Source of the DNA: Candidatus Multivoradales bacterium
GTDB lineage: Bacteria > Acidobacteriota > Thermoanaerobaculia > Multivoradales > JAHEKO01
Reading direction: 5' to 3'
NCBI GenBank assembly: GCA_965223155.1
Contig: CBDCVR010000015.1
Coordinates: 672,001 to 736,000, forward strand
DNA: 64,000 bases
This document shows positions 3,769 to 43,782 of this stretch, one piece after another. Position numbers and translations under genes: made by a program. The notes under the pieces are model-generated. The model did not search any database and was not told the DNA's origin. It saw only the letters and a list, made by a program, of their open reading frames with translations. How positions within the stretch are numbered: position 1 is the stretch's first letter; every line of letters starts with the position of its first letter.

Positions 3769-4109
3769 CCGGCATTCTCCCGAGCGTTGGTCTCGAGAGG
3801 CACGGACGGCTGAATCGAGCCGGGCCCATCGCACCAACTTCAGTCGGTTGAGGCCTCGGAGTAGGAGGGCAGATAGGCGAGCCGGTTGGCCGCCCGCGGC
3901 GGGGGCTAGAATGGCGGCCAGGCACTCGTATGGCCGCGCCACACTCGAACCGTCCCCGCCGAGCCCGAGGCACCCTGCGCTCGCAGCGTCAGGGGGACGG
4001 TAGCCTGGAAGCCGATCTTCCCGGCGCGCTCTTGGAGCTCTTCGGCAAACTCGGCAGCTCCGGCTCCGAGCCGTCCCTCGAGTCCGGTCCCAGCGACCAA
4101 GGAGGAATC

Positions 4110-5024
4110 ATGATGCCATTCCGGATCGTCCGCCCGTACCAGAAGGGTCTCGTCGAACGCCTGGGCAAGTACCAGCGCACCGTCGACAGCGGACTCAACA
4201 TCGTCCTGCCGTTCATCGAGCGTCTCATCAAGGTGGACATGCGCGAGCAGGTGGTCGACGTTCCGCCCCAGAGCGTCATCACCAAGGACAACGTGGTGGT
4301 CGAAGTGGACGCCGTCGTCTACTACCAGGTGACGAACCCGGTCAAAGTGACCTATAGCGTTGCCAACTTCTACGCCGCCGCCACCAAGCTGGCGCAGACG
4401 AGCTTACGTAATCTGGTCGGGGACTTGGCGCTCGACGAGTCGCTCACCTCGCGCGAGGTCATCAACTCGAAGTTGCGCCAGATTCTGGACGAGGCCACCG
4501 ACAAGTGGGGCGTCAAGGTCGCGCGCGTCGAGCTTCAGCGCATCGAACCGCCACAGGACGTAACCGAGGCCATGCACCGGCAGATGAAGGCCGAACGCAA
4601 CAAGCGCGCCGCGATCCTCGAAGCCGAGGGCCAGAAGCAATCTCGGATCCTGGAAGCCGAGGGTCAGAAGGAATCGGAGATTTTGCGCGCGGAAGGCGCG
4701 GCCGAAGCCGTCAAGCGCCAGGCCGAAGCCGAGCGGTACCGGCAGAAGGCGGTCGCCGAGGGCGAGGCCGAAGCGATCGAGCGCACCTACAACGCCATCC
4801 ACACCGCCCAGCCCTCACCCGAGCTCATCGCCATCAAGTACCTGGAGGCGCTCCAGCGCATTGCCGACGGCAAGGGCTCGAAGGTGTTCCTTCCCTACGA
4901 GGCCTCCGGCGTGCTTTCCAGCCTCGCGGCCGTCAAGGAGATCTGGGAGGGCAAGCCGGGCAAGAGGCCGCGCGCGGCCGGCGGCCCCGCGAGTCCAAGG
5001 GAACCGGTCGAGCCGCAGACCTAG
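4110..5024 (+). CDS. SPFH/band 7 (stomatin/QmcA-like) protein
   Basis: [31 protein letters not shown]; GGAGG RBS before ATG 4110. Confidence 0.9.
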
Positions 5025-5039
5025 CGGCGCTTCTCGCCG

Positions 5040-6341
5040 CTACCTGCTCGGCCCGGGGCCGGGGTCCCCGTCCACCGGCCTCCGGCCTGGAATCGGCTCC
5101 GGCCGCCGGCCGGGCTGGAAGTAGCCGGGCCGGTGCACGATGCGAGCTTTCTTGGGCGGGTTCCTGAGCTCGACCTCGAGACGGCGGTAGCGGCCCTCGG
5201 CCGGCGCATCATCTAGCTGGAAGGCCAGGACGTAGGTCAGGCTGGTCTGATCCAGCATCCGACCCAGAAGACGCTCGAGGTCCCGGGAGTTCGCATAGAC
5301 CGCGCCGCCCGTGCCGCGAGCCAGATGGTGCAACGAGTCGCGGCCGGTGCCCAGGCCGGCGGTGTTGACGGCCTGAACGGTCCAGTTCGAAGCCCGGAAC
5401 TCGCGCATCAGCTCTTGCAGAAAGCGCAGCGAGCGCGCCGCCTCCTCGCCCAGGATCGGTCCCGCCGACAGCAACACCAGGTGCTTCTCGCCGGCCACCC
5501 GCGTCCGCTCCATCAACTCCCGCAGACCGCGCGTCAGGTACATGACGAGGCTCGAGTGCGGCAGATCCAGATCCCCCCGAAGCCCGGCGTGTCGGGCTTC
5601 GGCGAGAACGTCGTCGAAAGAAGCGCGCAGAGGACCGCGCGCGGTCTTCGCCCGCCACCCCGGACGTGACGGCGCCAGCCGCGGCCAGTCCGCGAACTCG
5701 CGTTCGATCCGCCGCGGATTGGCGCGAATCACGAGCTCCATCAGTTCGACCGCTTCCGCCACTACCGCGGTCTCGGAGCTGAAATCGAGCAGCAGCTTCA
5801 ACCCCCGCAAGGCGCTGTGGTACGCGATCCCGACCCGGTCCGCGGGCGTCAACCGAGGCAGAACCGTACGCAAGGCTCGAAGGCTGGCCTCGAGCCGGCG
5901 CCGGGCGTGGATCAGATCCGTGCCGCCGTACGCCAGATCGAACAAGAAAAGATAGTTGCGTCCGACTGGGCCGGGAGGAGCGCGGGCTCCCGGAGAGCCC
6001 GGCGCGCTCGGAACCACCCCGGACGCCGCGTCCGGATCCGGCCGCCACAGAAAGTCGTAGACCGTCAGATCCAGAACCTCGCGTTCCACGCCCTCGTCGC
6101 GGACGATGAAGTCCTCGGCGGCAAGCCCTCGCAACGGCTTGCCATCCACCAGGACCCGCACGGGAACCTCGACCACCACCACCGACGTCGAGTCCCTGAA
6201 GCGATCGTCATCCAGCGCCGCCCCGGCCGCCGGCACCGGGCCTCCCGCGAGCACCACAAGACTTGCGGCTCCAACGAGCCGGCCGGTGCGACGAACCCTA
6301 GTCCAGATACCCGAGTGCCCGCAGGGCCTCGTTGATCTCAT
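5040..6341 (-). CDS. VWA-domain protein (VWFA-related acidobacterial type); start uncertain
   Basis: VVVEVPVRV..GKPLRGL..EDF N-terminus; LARGTGG..YVLAF..GRYRRLEVEL..HRPGY C-terminus. Confidence 0.75.
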   Translation of the reverse strand: MRSTRPCGHSGIWTRVRRTGRLVGAASLVVLAGGPVPAAGAALDDDRFRDSTSVVVVEVPVRVLVDGKPLRGLAAEDFIVRDEGVEREVLDLTVYDFLWRPDPDAASGVVPSAPGSPGARAPPGPVGRNYLFLFDLAYGGTDLIHARRRLEASLRALRTVLPRLTPADRVGIAYHSALRGLKLLLDFSSETAVVAEAVELMELVIRANPRRIEREFADWPRLAPSRPGWRAKTARGPLRASFDDVLAEARHAGLRGDLDLPHSSLVMYLTRGLRELMERTRVAGEKHLVLLSAGPILGEEAARSLRFLQELMREFRASNWTVQAVNTAGLGTGRDSLHHLARGTGGAVYANSRDLERLLGRMLDQTSLTYVLAFQLDDAPAEGRYRRLEVELRNPPKKARIVHRPGYFQPGRRPEPIPGRRPVDGDPGPGPSR

Positions 6342-30793: not shown

Positions 30794-30885
30794 GGTGACA
30801 GGATACCTATCCTGTCGCGATGAACGAGGCTCTTGAAGCTTCAGGGCCGCGAGTTCCCCTTCCCGGAGATACGTATCCTGTCACC
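30794..30885. repeat. ~92-bp REP/MITE-like element, copy 1, 13-bp terminal inverted repeats
   Basis: GGTGACAGGATAC at 30794-30806 and GTATCCTGTCACC at 30873-30885; internal sequence aligns with copy 2. Confidence 0.8.
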
Positions 30886-30920: not shown

Positions 30921-31742
30921 CTGATACTTCTCGCGATATTCCTCGCGACCTTTCCGGCGTGCACCAGCGCCGCCACAACGCCTTCAGCTCCGCGCGCCAC
31001 GACGGACGCTCGGGACCCGGCAGGCGCCGAGCCCGAGACCGGCGGCTCCGAAACTGACCACCCGACTTGGCGGTTGGCGGACGACCTCGAAGTCACCGCC
31101 ATCGCTCCGGGCATCTGGCTCCACACCACCTGGCGCGCCCTCGAAGGCGGGCGGCGCTTTCCGTCGAATGGGCTCGTCGTGCGCAACGGACGGGAGGCCG
31201 TGCTCGTCGATACGGCCTGGGGCACCGAGCCCACCGAACGACTCTTGGAATGGATCGATGGGGCTCTGGGTCTTCAGGTAACCGCCGCCGTCGCCACGCA
31301 TTTCCACGACGACCGGCTGGGCGGCGCGCCGGCACTGGCGCGGCGAGGCATCTCGGTCTCGGTTTCGGAAGCCACCCAGCGCCTGGCCCGGAACGAAGAC
31401 CGTCCGTACCTGGCCGCCCTCGGGCAGCTCGCGCCCGGGCAAGCGCTCGCATTCGGTCCGCTCGAGCTCTTCTTCCCGGGACCAGCCCATACCTAGGACA
31501 ATCTGGTGGTCTGGCTGCCCGATCTCGAGATTCTCTTTGGCGGCTGCGCCGTCCGGCCGGCATCCGAGGCGGGCATGGGCAACACCGCCGACGCCGACCT
31601 CGAGGCCTGGGCAGCATCCATCCGGCGCGTGCGCGACCGCTACCGGCCCCGGCTCGTCATTCCAAGCCACGGGCAGGCGGGTACCGCCGATCTCCTCGAC
31701 CACACCATCGCGCTAGCCGAGGCCGCAGTAAGCGGCCCCTAG
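30921..31742 (+). pseudogene. Subclass B1 metallo-beta-lactamase, lipoprotein-type, in-frame TAG at 31494-31496, no clear start codon
   Basis: FPSNGL, VDTAW, THFHDD, GPAHT*DNLVVW, FGGC, VIPSHG all in one frame; LILLAIFLATFPAC signal-like stretch upstream. Confidence 0.85.
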
Positions 31743-31919
31743 AGTTGCGGGTGAAGTTCTGGTGACGGGATTCCCGTCCCGGTCGCTGCAAATGGGACGG
31801 CCCTTAAGTATCAGAGGCCGCGAAGCCTCCCGGAAGATGGGTATCCTTCTATGAGTCGGTCGGTTGGCGTCAAGAGTTTCGTTTCTTCTTTTTGTAGTTT
31901 TCCTTAGGTTTGGATCGAG

Positions 31920-32065
31920 GCTTGGGACGAGCTTCTATTCGCACTCTGTAGGGTTCTTCTTTGAACCGGTGCATGGTGAGTTTTGCGTCCGTTTAGGAAT
32001 CGATGCTCCCATCTGTCACACGGTGTCGGGGCCACCAAGGATACTTTCGGAGTCATCGAACCTCT
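31920..32065 (-). ncRNA. Bridge/seek RNA candidate (target-binding and donor-binding loops)
   Basis: Two stem-internal loop-stem units; loops contain GTATCCT/GTGACAG (target) and ATAGAAG/CTCACC (circle junction); transcript ends unknown. Confidence 0.8.
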
Positions 32066-32103
32066 CAATCCGTCCTTGCTTGTTGGTCGTCTAGTTATCT
32101 CTT

Positions 32104-33117
32104 CTACGCTGCCTTGGGAAAGGCTCGGAAGCTCTCACCTGTCACCCACAGCCTGTGGAGCAACACCGCGATCTTCCTAGCTAGCGCGACCACGGCCTTG
32201 CCCTTACCCAGCCTCTCGACCAGGCCCTCAGCCCATCTCTTGAGTGACGACTCTTTGCGACAGTTCAACGCCGCATGAGCTGCCTGCACCAAGAGTCTGC
32301 GCATCTCCGAGTCGCCCTCGCGAGTGATCCGGCCCCTGACCTCATGCCCTCCTGAGCTGCGAAGCGACGGTCTCAAGCCCAGACACGCTCCGACGTCGCG
32401 GCTTTTCTCGAACCGATCCGGACGATCCATCCAGCCGACGAACGCAAGGCTCACCAGAGGCCCCACACCAGGAACCGTCTGCAGCCGACGGACCAGCTCG
32501 TTTGATCTCGACTCGGAGATGAGGTCGTCTTCGAGATGGTGGATCCGATCGGTCAGCTCGCCGATTGTCGTTACCAGAGGTTCGAGCGCTCCCAACAGGC
32601 CGGCTTCGACCGACATCGACGCGTACCGAGCCACGAAGCTCTTCGCCGGACATGAGGGCACTCGGTAGCCCTGTGCCCGCAGCGTTCCGCGTACGGAGTT
32701 GATCAGCGAGGTCCTGGTCTTCACCAGACTCGTTCGGACCCGAAGACGCGTCCGAAGCTCTTGGGCCTCACCTGTGCGCTGGTAGACTGGTCGAAGCAAA
32801 CCCAGATCCAACCGGCTCAAACGAGCCAGGATCTCGGCGTCGATTCCGTCCGTCTTCAGGGTCGATTCCGCGATCAGACGTACCCGGCGTGGATTGACCA
32901 CCATCACCTCATGGCCGAGCTCAGACAGCAGTCGATAGACCCAGGGTGTGACCGGACCGCTCTCGAGCGTCACCTGCGAGCGTTCCCGATTGGCGAAGAA
33001 CCTTCGCAGGCCCGTCTCGGTCGTCGGAACCCGCCGGCGAACCGTCACCTCACCGTCTTCTGATACGCCACACACCTCGCTGTACTTCGAGTGAACATCG
33101 ATGCCAAGATACTCCAT
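32104..33117 (-). CDS. IS110-family DEDD transposase/recombinase
   Basis: GIDVH, LESG, KTDGIDA, VPGVG, LRSSGG, VALARK. Confidence 0.95.
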   Translation of the reverse strand: MEYLGIDVHSKYSEVCGVSEDGEVTVRRRVPTTETGLRRFFANRERSQVTLESGPVTPWVYRLLSELGHEVMVVNPRRVRLIAESTLKTDGIDAEILARLSRLDLGLLRPVYQRTGEAQELRTRLRVRTSLVKTRTSLINSVRGTLRAQGYRVPSCPAKSFVARYASMSVEAGLLGALEPLVTTIGELTDRIHHLEDDLISESRSNELVRRLQTVPGVGPLVSLAFVGWMDRPDRFEKSRDVGACLGLRPSLRSSGGHEVRGRITREGDSEMRRLLVQAAHAALNCRKESSLKRWAEGLVERLGKGKAVVALARKIAVLLHRLWVTGESFRAFPKAA

Positions 33118-33525
33118 GGTCGGTCTCCTTTCTCGGCTCTGATGCCGATTCTTGGTTATCTCCAACTGGCACAGTGTCCCAGCTGGAGACCGACCGACTC
33201 ATCTCATCTGTCACCCAATCTCCGCCCCTCAATCTTGGCCTACGTGCGACGGGCTTCCGGTGTGTCCGCCCGAAAGCCCGTCTGGTTCTGGCGGAGGTTT
33301 GTGTCGTTATCCACCAAGGTCCCTTGCGGGACACTCTCAGGCTAGTCAGGGCCGGAGCCAGCCGCTATCGCACCGCTGCTTGGAGCGCAATTTGTCAGGA
33401 AAGCGGCGGTGGGCAACTGCCCGTGCCGCTGCCCGGCGCATCCTGTGAGGCCACGAAGCAACTTCGTCCTCGGCGGGTTCGGAGCACTGCCACGGGAGCG
33501 CCGCGCTAGACTCCCCCCGGCCCCG

Positions 33526-43741: not shown

Positions 43742-43782
43742 GGTGACAGGATACCTATTCCCCCGCTATGGAAGACGGCCCT
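43742..43782. repeat. Partial copy 3 of REP/MITE-like element (left end)
   Basis: GGTGACAGGATACCTAT identical to 30794-30810, followed by GACGGCCCT as in copy 2. Confidence 0.7.

Follow-up and report, generated by a model that had tools for sequence, protein, structure and literature searches.

The stretch of DNA analysed here, referred to as the window, comprises 64,000 nucleotides of Candidatus Multivoradales bacterium (assembly GCA_965223155.1, contig CBDCVR010000015.1, positions 672,001 to 736,000 of the forward strand), and contains at 31848-33209, on the minus strand, a 1362-bp insertion sequence, here called IS-A, whose length includes one copy of a CT core. The transposase gene of IS-A (32104..33117, minus strand) encodes 337 amino acids plus a stop (32104-32106), and its likely start is the ATG at 33117, which follows GGAG. 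The protein contains the Pfam domains DEDD_Tnp_IS110 (PF01548; 87.6 bits, E 9e-25) and Transposase_20 (PF02371; 75.4 bits, E 5e-21), both with scores above the curated cut-offs, and the motifs GIDVH, TLESG, KTDGIDA and GLRPSLRSSG (residues 247-256). Its putative catalytic residues, numbered from the translation, are D7, E52, D90, D93 and S255, the last within GLRPSLRSSG. By sequence, its sole relatives of solved structure are the transposases of ISCro4 (E 3e-10) and IS621 (E 6e-10), and the closest protein matches bear generic names only (transposase, IS110 family transposase). Its metagenomic relatives number 3412 proteins at E<=1e-3. The open reading frame and the catalytic motifs are intact, and the element appears to be intact and programmable.

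On the plus strand of the window IS-A is preceded by GTATC-CT (31841..31847), the left target half with the core, which in the transposase sense is the right flank AG-GATAC; the element then ends in CTCAT-CT, directly followed by the right target half GTCACC (33210..33215, plus strand). Excision of 31848-33209 in silico yields GTATC-CT-GTCACC, and direct reading of the sequence thus bears out the boundaries proposed in an earlier sequence-only reading of this locus. Both ends carry a perfect 13-bp subterminal inverted repeat, CCGACCGACTCAT at the right end (31851..31863) and ATGAGTCGGTCGG at the left end (33190..33202), which lie 3 nt and 7 nt, respectively, from the element ends. The corresponding terminal extensions are AGA (31848..31850) and AG-ATGAG (33203..33209), the first two letters of the latter being the core; repeats and extensions are all on the minus strand and are given in the transposase sense. 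The non-coding DNA is longer downstream of the transposase gene (256 nt, 31848-32103) than upstream of it (92 nt, 33118-33209).

In the published description of the IS1111 group, the transposase has ~330-350 amino acids and a GL-P----S(t)G motif, and the subterminal repeats, 11-13 bp long, are separated from the ends by extensions of 7 bp on the left side and 3 bp on the other (PMC11187229). The DEDD transposase, the 13-bp subterminal repeats, the 7/3-nt extensions, the longer downstream non-coding region and the site-specific insertion without target duplication therefore identify 31848-33209 as an IS1111-group insertion sequence of the IS110 family, in agreement with the sequence-only reading. 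The same end plan was found in all 17 homolog loci with identified repeats, and the right-end extension is AGA or GGA in each of them. The distant homologs were gathered by a phylum-wide genome search, and a scan of genome contigs with the protein gave two loci, one of them useful. Repeats were searched with an 11-mer rule allowing one mismatch, and repeats of the ATGAG type were found in 17 of the 27 loci examined; loci without repeats under this rule (L029, L031, L037, L040, L042 and L044-L048), owing to contig ends or differing repeats, were excluded from the guide tests described below.

The host assembly (G000; 4.0 Mb in 15 contigs, designated C below) contains 14 full copies of IS-A, 12 at 100% and two at 99.9% identity. 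In addition, one copy is interrupted by another element, and a sister element, IS-B (82% DNA identity), is present twice. The number of distinct loci is slightly below this raw count, as the C7 copy at 4098-5459 is possibly the same locus as C14:359746-361107. Other copies at unrelated sequences would have spoken against the sequence-only reading; all 14 full copies sit instead between G[T/C]ATC-CT and the same GTCACC, with GTATCCT in 13 and GCATCCT in one, which would give a G-U wobble with the guide. The 13-mer target motif GTATCCTGTCACC occurs unoccupied 17 more times in the host genome, where ~0.1 occurrences are expected by chance, so that 14 of a total of 31 motif sites are occupied. Unoccupied motifs within the window lie at 30794..30806 (minus strand; G000:C15:702794-702806), 30873..30885 (plus strand; G000:C15:702873-702885) and 43742..43754 (minus strand; G000:C15:715742-715754).

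The target motif forms the loop of a hairpin, the stem letters of which vary between copies yet stay complementary, as in AGAAATAGG/CCTATTTCT and AAGACAGG/CCTGTCTC. It is present in 12 of the 30 related genomes searched, 11 of these being among 18 genomes of the same family, and reaches 68 copies in one related genome, often as inverted pairs ~20-58 bp apart; a reversed control pattern had no match in any of the 31 genomes. The compensating hairpin stems and the occurrence in multiple genomes identify the target as a lineage-wide repeat resembling repetitive extragenic palindromic (REP) sequences.

Two pairs of occupied and empty sites were found in the assembly. Contig C11 is a second version of C14:570779-577038 (94-99.8% identity), with IS-A inserted where C14 reads ...GGTGAC-AG-GATAC..., and contig C7, 98.9% identical to C14:355657-366092 over 10.4 kb, holds a further, interrupted IS-A where C14:366085-366097 is empty. 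In both pairs only the 2-nt core is common to the two junctions, which confirms the element boundaries and the lack of target duplication. IS-A thus inserts in one sequence and one orientation without target duplication (14/14 copies and the two pairs), and there is insertion polymorphism within the sequenced material.

Downstream of the transposase gene, the minimum free energy fold of the minus strand (31848-32110) contains a long-range closing stem around two stem-loops, both of which comprise an internal loop and an inner hairpin; the two stem-loops are also present in the consensus fold. The core of this predicted bridge/seek RNA, ~160 nt in length (31912..32071, minus strand, like all of its parts), is closed by stem P1 (32071-32064 with 31919-31912), which encloses both stem-loops. 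In the predicted target-binding stem-loop (31999..32060) an outer stem (32060-32049 with 32009-31999), with the strands UCGAUG(A)CUCC (32060-32049) and GGAGCAUCGA (32009-32000), leads to an inner hairpin at 32037-32021. The predicted donor-binding stem-loop (31925..31990) has an outer stem formed by GGACG (31990-31986) and CGUCC (31929-31925), a middle stem (31973-31968 with 31946-31940) and an inner hairpin at 31967-31952. A scan of 31500-33500 against Rfam at E<=1 found no relevant family, and no family of Rfam 15 covers this RNA; matches to mir-663 and sR28 in the same interval were dismissed as chance.

The fold is conserved well beyond the close relatives of IS-A. Over the RNA region, IS-A, IS-B and L020 (a relative from an Acidobacteria metagenome-assembled genome, 85% amino acid identity) have a mean column identity of 91-93%, and their differences concentrate in loop letters and in compensating stem positions, such as GGUG/CACC to GGAG/CUCC and GGUUC/GAACC to GGUCC/GGACC. 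A covariance model, R1, built from these three close copies and run with filters off on 29 loci, matches 26 of them at E<=0.012, namely the three seed-type copies and 23 of the 26 more distant loci, whose transposases are mostly 33-44% and at most 56% identical. All 23 distant matches lie downstream of the transposase gene, on its strand; L030 and L041 gave partial matches only (E 0.12-0.15), and L048 none below E 1. In the R1 alignment 92.9% of the cells are paired, against 33-42% with slid partners, compensatory changes occur in 35 of 40 base pairs, and none of 500 shuffles reaches the observed values; these counts come from a model-fitted alignment, which favours the structure. Helices 3 and 4, in the target stem-loop, are 99% and 94% paired across the 26 sequences, with compensatory changes, and helices 5-7, in the donor stem-loop, are 83-98% paired, with compensatory changes in 14 of 16 pairs. 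In the host genome R1 finds 17 RNA copies, all within the 15 IS-A and two IS-B copies. The stems predicted in the sequence-only reading are present in the minimum free energy fold.

The internal loop of the target stem-loop contains two guides, which together cover both halves of the target and the CT core. The 5' target guide, GUAUC-CU (32038..32044, minus strand), corresponds to the left target guide (LTG) of IS621 and to the 'T' match of seekRNAs, and pairs with AG-GATAC on the transposase-sense strand; the 3' target guide, GUGAC-AG (32013..32019, minus strand), corresponds to the right target guide (RTG) or 'B' match, and pairs with CT-GTCAC on the plus strand of the window. Their position within the target stem had been recognized in the sequence-only reading, and the stem is present in the minimum free energy fold.

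To avoid circularity in comparing guides with flanks, guide positions were fixed by conserved anchors, and the guides of each element were compared with its own flanks and with those of the other elements. The five letters preceding A[AG][AG]U[GUA]G, itself 55-85 nt upstream of a UGCG.AU.GA motif, served as the 3' guide, and the 5' guide was sought in the 12-letter stretch that follows the 5' strand of the stem. For the 3' (B) guide, 86 of 105 letters match the elements' own flanks and 13 of the 21 elements are exact, with a non-cognate mean of 1.67 of 5; for the 5' (T) guide the corresponding values are 92 of 105 letters, 11 of 21 elements and 2.77 of 5. Neither own-flank total was reached in 100,000 permutations, whether all 21 elements or the 14 distant ones alone were used, although the related elements are kin and these figures overstate independence. 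The guides thus covary with the targets across 21 elements, as the sequence-only reading requires. Three elements were dropped from the guide matrix: L033, which has no left flank on its contig, L030, which lacks a B anchor, and ISB_L016, a duplicate of ISB_L017. L028 (genome G152) contributes one row of guide counts, 3/5 and 4/5, and the conclusion is independent of it. An unanchored search of the whole non-coding regions with guide 7-mers had given a weak contrast (own targets 10-14 of 14, background 9-12), and was replaced by the anchor-based test. In L043, the 5' guide of which does not match its own flank, the non-coding region contains, ~80-98 nt after the transposase stop, a stretch that repeats the element's own right flank exactly and then continues with a part of its left flank.

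The second stem-loop contains guides for the element ends. The 3' donor guide (RDG, right donor guide), AUAGA-AG (31932..31938, minus strand), consists of the final 5 nt of the right end followed by the core, and, as claimed in the sequence-only reading, is an exact match, within the GGACG/CGUCC stem, to the predicted joined ends CTCAT-CT-TCTAT. The 5' donor guide (LDG, left donor guide), CUCAC-CA (31974..31980, minus strand), agrees with the 7-nt left extension at 5 of 7 positions; the imperfect CTCACC noted earlier was confirmed at 31980-31975. The core letters are therefore included in the LTG, RTG and RDG of IS-A, and are lacking in the LDG. In the 19 distinct elements compared, the right end has A (9 elements) or G (10 elements) as its third-last letter, and position 3 of the RDG agrees with this letter in all 19, the L038 match being taken from a separate reading, as the conserved anchor fell on a wrong site there. 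Letters 1-4 of the LDG match the extension in 10 of 14 anchored elements, including L034, whose unusual extension is mirrored by CCUUA. L035, the only element with an AA core, has UU, AA and AA at the core positions of three guides. Since the donor-loop guides follow the varying element ends, the LDG more weakly, these data support a bridge RNA with two loops over an RNA that serves the target alone. The RTG is directly followed on its 3' side by AUG (32010..32012, minus strand), which is complementary to the donor CAT before the donor core. In all 19 anchored rows the guide is followed by A[AG]AU, and the first two letters of the triplet recur in 18 of the 19. This triplet (32012-32010) is a candidate handshake-like guide; a matching handshake sequence of the donor-binding loop (DBL) for the IS-A target, sought by eye, was not found, the RNA having CU where GA is needed.

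The sister element IS-B, with two copies at G000:C15:372320-373686 and C13:297857-299223 (loci L016 and L017, in each case 1501-2867), shares its ends and its donor loop with IS-A, and its transposase is 86% identical to that of IS-A, but it differs in its target loop. This loop reads AAAGG-GU and GUGCC-AG, and the flanks of the two copies are GGAAAGG-CT|...|GGCACC and GAAAAGG-GT|...|GGAACC. Metagenomic relatives with 78-86% identical transposases (L053, L054, L055 and L057) also have changed guides that match changed flanks. The guides of L054 (GAAGCCU-CU and GUGCC) match its flanks exactly, those of L055 (GAAGUGG-GU and GUUCC) are exact over 9 and 5 letters, and in L053 and L057 the guide-flank match contains one wobble each. 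Judged from their guides and flanks, IS-B and the metagenomic relatives are naturally retargeted elements.

The IS-B lineage shows a further peculiarity at the core, since its 5' target guide has the core GU, whereas the 3' guide and the donor read CT. The host genome contains three empty sites of the IS-B type, two of which read AAAGG-GT-GG(C/A)AC, and the insertions of ISB_L016, L053 and L055 all keep GT at one junction and CT at the other. We tentatively suggest that this lineage (IS-B, L053 and L055) may recombine non-identical cores, target GT against donor CT on the plus strand of the window. By the same reading, which we put forward with equal reserve, the 5' target guide might be set to the target core GU, and the 3' target guide with the following AUG to the donor CAT-CT, that is, to the state after strand exchange. 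If this were true, the junction pattern of the IS-B lineage would record which strand exchanged first, and the lineage would provide a natural counterpart to the engineered 'post-handshake' bridge RNAs and a lever on directionality.

Near the right end of IS-A, TTGACG (31868..31873, minus strand) could serve as the -35 box of a promoter whose remaining part would be supplied only once the ends are joined in a circle. All 20 elements compared have TTGAC at a distance of 25-26 nt from the right end, as would fit such a circle-junction promoter, and in ISEc11 a promoter is formed at the circle junction (PMC11187229). Taken together, we regard it as very probable that IS-A is an intact, probably recently active IS1111-group element, the DEDD/serine recombinase of which is guided by the element's own RNA. 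In the mechanism that we propose, the ~160-nt RNA from just downstream of the transposase gene would guide the recombinase. Its first loop would pair, through GUAUC-CU and GUGAC-AG, with opposite strands of the 12-bp target GTATC-CT-GTCAC, the two pairings overlapping at the CT core, and its second loop would pair likewise, through CUCAC(CA) and AUAGA-AG, with the joined ends CTCAT-CT-TCTAT. The RNA would in this way direct the element, in circular form, to the loop of the REP-like hairpin (predicted target GTATCCTGTCAC), where the recombinase would exchange strands at the core, resulting in insertion without target duplication. That the RNA is made and bound, that the circle is formed and its junction promoter used, and the order of strand exchange, are steps that we infer.

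Other explanations of these data were considered. The RNA could select the target only, with the protein reading the ends through the subterminal repeats and the second stem-loop serving as a scaffold whose resemblance to the ends would be incidental. Such a one-loop seekRNA has a precedent in ISEc11, for which a short seekRNA of 82 nt sufficed to move a mini-IS (PMC11187229), and it would be compatible with the imperfect 5' donor guide (5/7) and with ends that are near-invariant across the family and offer less variation to test against. For IS-A we nevertheless consider this unlikely, because guide position 3 tracks the A/G third-last base of the right end in 19/19 elements, the AA core of L035 appears in its donor guide, CCUUA mirrors the odd left extension of L034, and the second stem-loop is conserved, with the compensatory changes in helices 5-7 (14/16 pairs). 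It is also conceivable that the protein itself reads the REP-like hairpin, the short matches in the non-coding DNA being due to chance or to captured pieces of the target, since a protein could recognise the target as a structured, repeated hairpin and each guide is only 7 nt long. We find this scarcely credible: IS-B, with its 86% identical transposase and identical ends, sits at a different sequence, which matches its changed loops, the same holds for L053-L057 and for the 14 distant elements, and the matching letters occupy fixed places in a conserved fold. Finally, IS-A could be a fixed fossil, the copies of which spread by duplication of the surrounding repeats and not by transposition, and indeed several copies have longer flanking repeat sequence in common, and the copy count is inflated by some small contigs that represent other versions of regions on the main contigs. 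This is very unlikely in view of the near-complete identity of the copies (12 of 14 at 100%, the other two at 99.9%), of the many flanks that are unrelated beyond the hairpin, of the two regions with both an occupied and an empty version of the site, and of the intact open reading frame and catalytic motifs.

The interpretation of IS-A as an RNA-guided element with two guide loops has to be weighed against several observations in addition to the kinship of the elements and the model-fitted alignment mentioned above. The minimum free energy of the 263-nt region is unremarkable when taken alone (z -1.58; 15 of 200 shuffles fold as well). The LDG, besides matching in 5 of 7 letters only, does not pair with the core, having CA where CU is expected (CUCAU-CU). 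Poor matches were obtained with the B guides of L034 (0/5), L032 (2/5) and L036 (2/5), and with the T guides of L023, L039 and L043 (3/5 each); in the weak rows L032, L034 and L036 the fixed 7-nt end rule probably mis-set the boundary. A promoter scan of 31750-33300 found no sigma-70-like site, no RNA run was listed among the sequencing runs that contain the stretch, and the contigs of four sequencing runs contain no circle junction or joints over 31600-33450, assembled contigs being prone to drop rare forms.

Several further observations concern the copies and their surroundings. The small contigs C7, C11 and C2 are alternative versions of main-contig regions, differing by IS-A insertions, and C2 is 90-97% identical to a repeated C15 region; the assembly thus seems to combine at least two variants of the organism, or else to include segments duplicated recently. 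The element that splits one IS-A copy is of the IS256 type (1372 bp, G000:C7:11411-12782, corresponding to L018:129-1500), is flanked by an 8-bp duplication, CGTCACTC, and encodes a 435-amino-acid protein with a Transposase_mut domain (E 2e-65). Identical copies of it lie at C14:571680-573051, C13:299686-301056, C15:374671-376045 and C11:5664-7035, two of them within ~0.5-1 kb of IS-B copies. A solitary 42-bp remnant of a left end (G000:C13:299287-299328, L019; 97.6% identical) abuts GGAACC, an IS-B-type target half, and is located ~130 bp from the C13 copy of IS-B, in inverted orientation. In a run from another study, with another organism label (X5), contigs contain four pieces of the element that are at least 99% identical, over window positions 31899-33098, so that IS-A or a near-identical copy is also present in data other than those of the host. 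A metallo-beta-lactamase-fold gene located just upstream of IS-A (31074-31745 of the window, plus strand), the N-terminal part of which matches Pfam Lactamase_B (E 5e-12), contains an in-frame TAG at 31494-31496, inside ...GPAHT*DNLVVWLP..., and may be a pseudogene or reflect a sequencing error.

The interpretation given in the sequence-only reading is supported in every structural claim, and IS-A emerges as an IS1111-type bridge recombinase that is apparently active, comes from a lineage that has been little studied and can be resolved cleanly: four guides, the core, a handshake-like triplet and the target can be assigned from sequence alone. It comes with a series of natural retargeting events, with at least 5 specificities among transposases that are 78-100% identical, and with a family-wide covariance model. 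IS-A is a candidate for studying how IS1111-type elements use the donor loop, which is less studied in them than in IS621, and a possible extra ortholog for programmable insertion work.

Bridge/seek RNAs of IS1111 elements, the targeting of REP sequences and natural retargeting have already been published (PMC11187229, PMC11208160), and bridge RNAs were predicted in 93% of IS1111 elements (PMC11208160). IS-A resembles ISEc11, ISPa11, ISKpn4 and ISPst6 (PMC11187229) in having a DEDD transposase in the range of 330-350 amino acids with a GL-P----SG motif, subterminal repeats in the range of 11-13 bp with 7-bp and 3-bp extensions, a long downstream non-coding region and two short overlapping matches to opposite target strands, and in inserting without target duplication. 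The top-strand match comes first and the bottom-strand match second in IS1111 seekRNAs, whereas the order is opposite in IS110 types (PMC11187229); IS-A follows the IS1111 order, with GUAUCCU 5' of GUGACAG. Targeting of a REP-like sequence is as in ISPa11, and natural retargeting between close relatives as in ISEc11 and ISXne4 (PMC11187229). IS-A differs from ISEc11, ISPa11, ISKpn4 and ISPst6 in its target, GTATC-CT-GTCAC, and in its host lineage, and also in that its donor-binding loop is resolved and covaries with the ends.

With IS621 (PMC11208160, PMC11208158), IS-A has in common two internal loops, a CT core in the guides and a REP target, a likeness that holds when the IS-A DNA is read in the plus orientation of the window, antisense to the transposase. 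On this strand the guide geometry of IS-A equals that of IS621, for both target and donor, as does the product order, LT-core-RD...LD-core-RT, which is GTATC-CT-TCTAT...CTCAT-CT-GTCAC in IS-A. The guides of IS621 have been defined with the CT core included (PMC11208160), and the two letters 3' of its RTG, at positions 81-82, pair after strand exchange with the donor letters before the core (PMC11208158); by analogy, the two to three letters 3' of the RTG that are complementary to the donor in IS-A may be a counterpart of this handshake. Unlike in IS621, the RNA of IS-A is located downstream, not upstream, of the recombinase gene, gene and RNA being inverted relative to the guide and target geometry. 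The subterminal repeats of IS-A are, in addition, long, its LDG lacks core pairing, and a handshake match of the donor-binding loop was not seen by eye. The proteins themselves are a distant match (E 6e-10).

IS4321 and IS5075, reportedly described by Partridge and Hall in 2003, are said to be IS1111-family elements with subterminal repeats that insert at one position in the terminal repeats of Tn21-family transposons. IS-A likewise inserts at one position of a repeated sequence, which in its case, unlike in theirs, is a chromosomal hairpin repeat. ISPpu9 and ISPpu10 of Pseudomonas putida (PMC12288879; ISPpu10 also in PMC11208160) are similar to IS-A in belonging to the IS110 family and in having several copies in REP sequences and a small RNA gene downstream of the transposase; ISPpu9 has extra stand-alone copies of the RNA (PMC12288879), whereas all 17 RNA copies found here lie inside elements. 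In comparison with these systems, IS-A is a well-resolved further example of the published class of RNA-guided recombinases, and leaves the current picture of that class unchanged.

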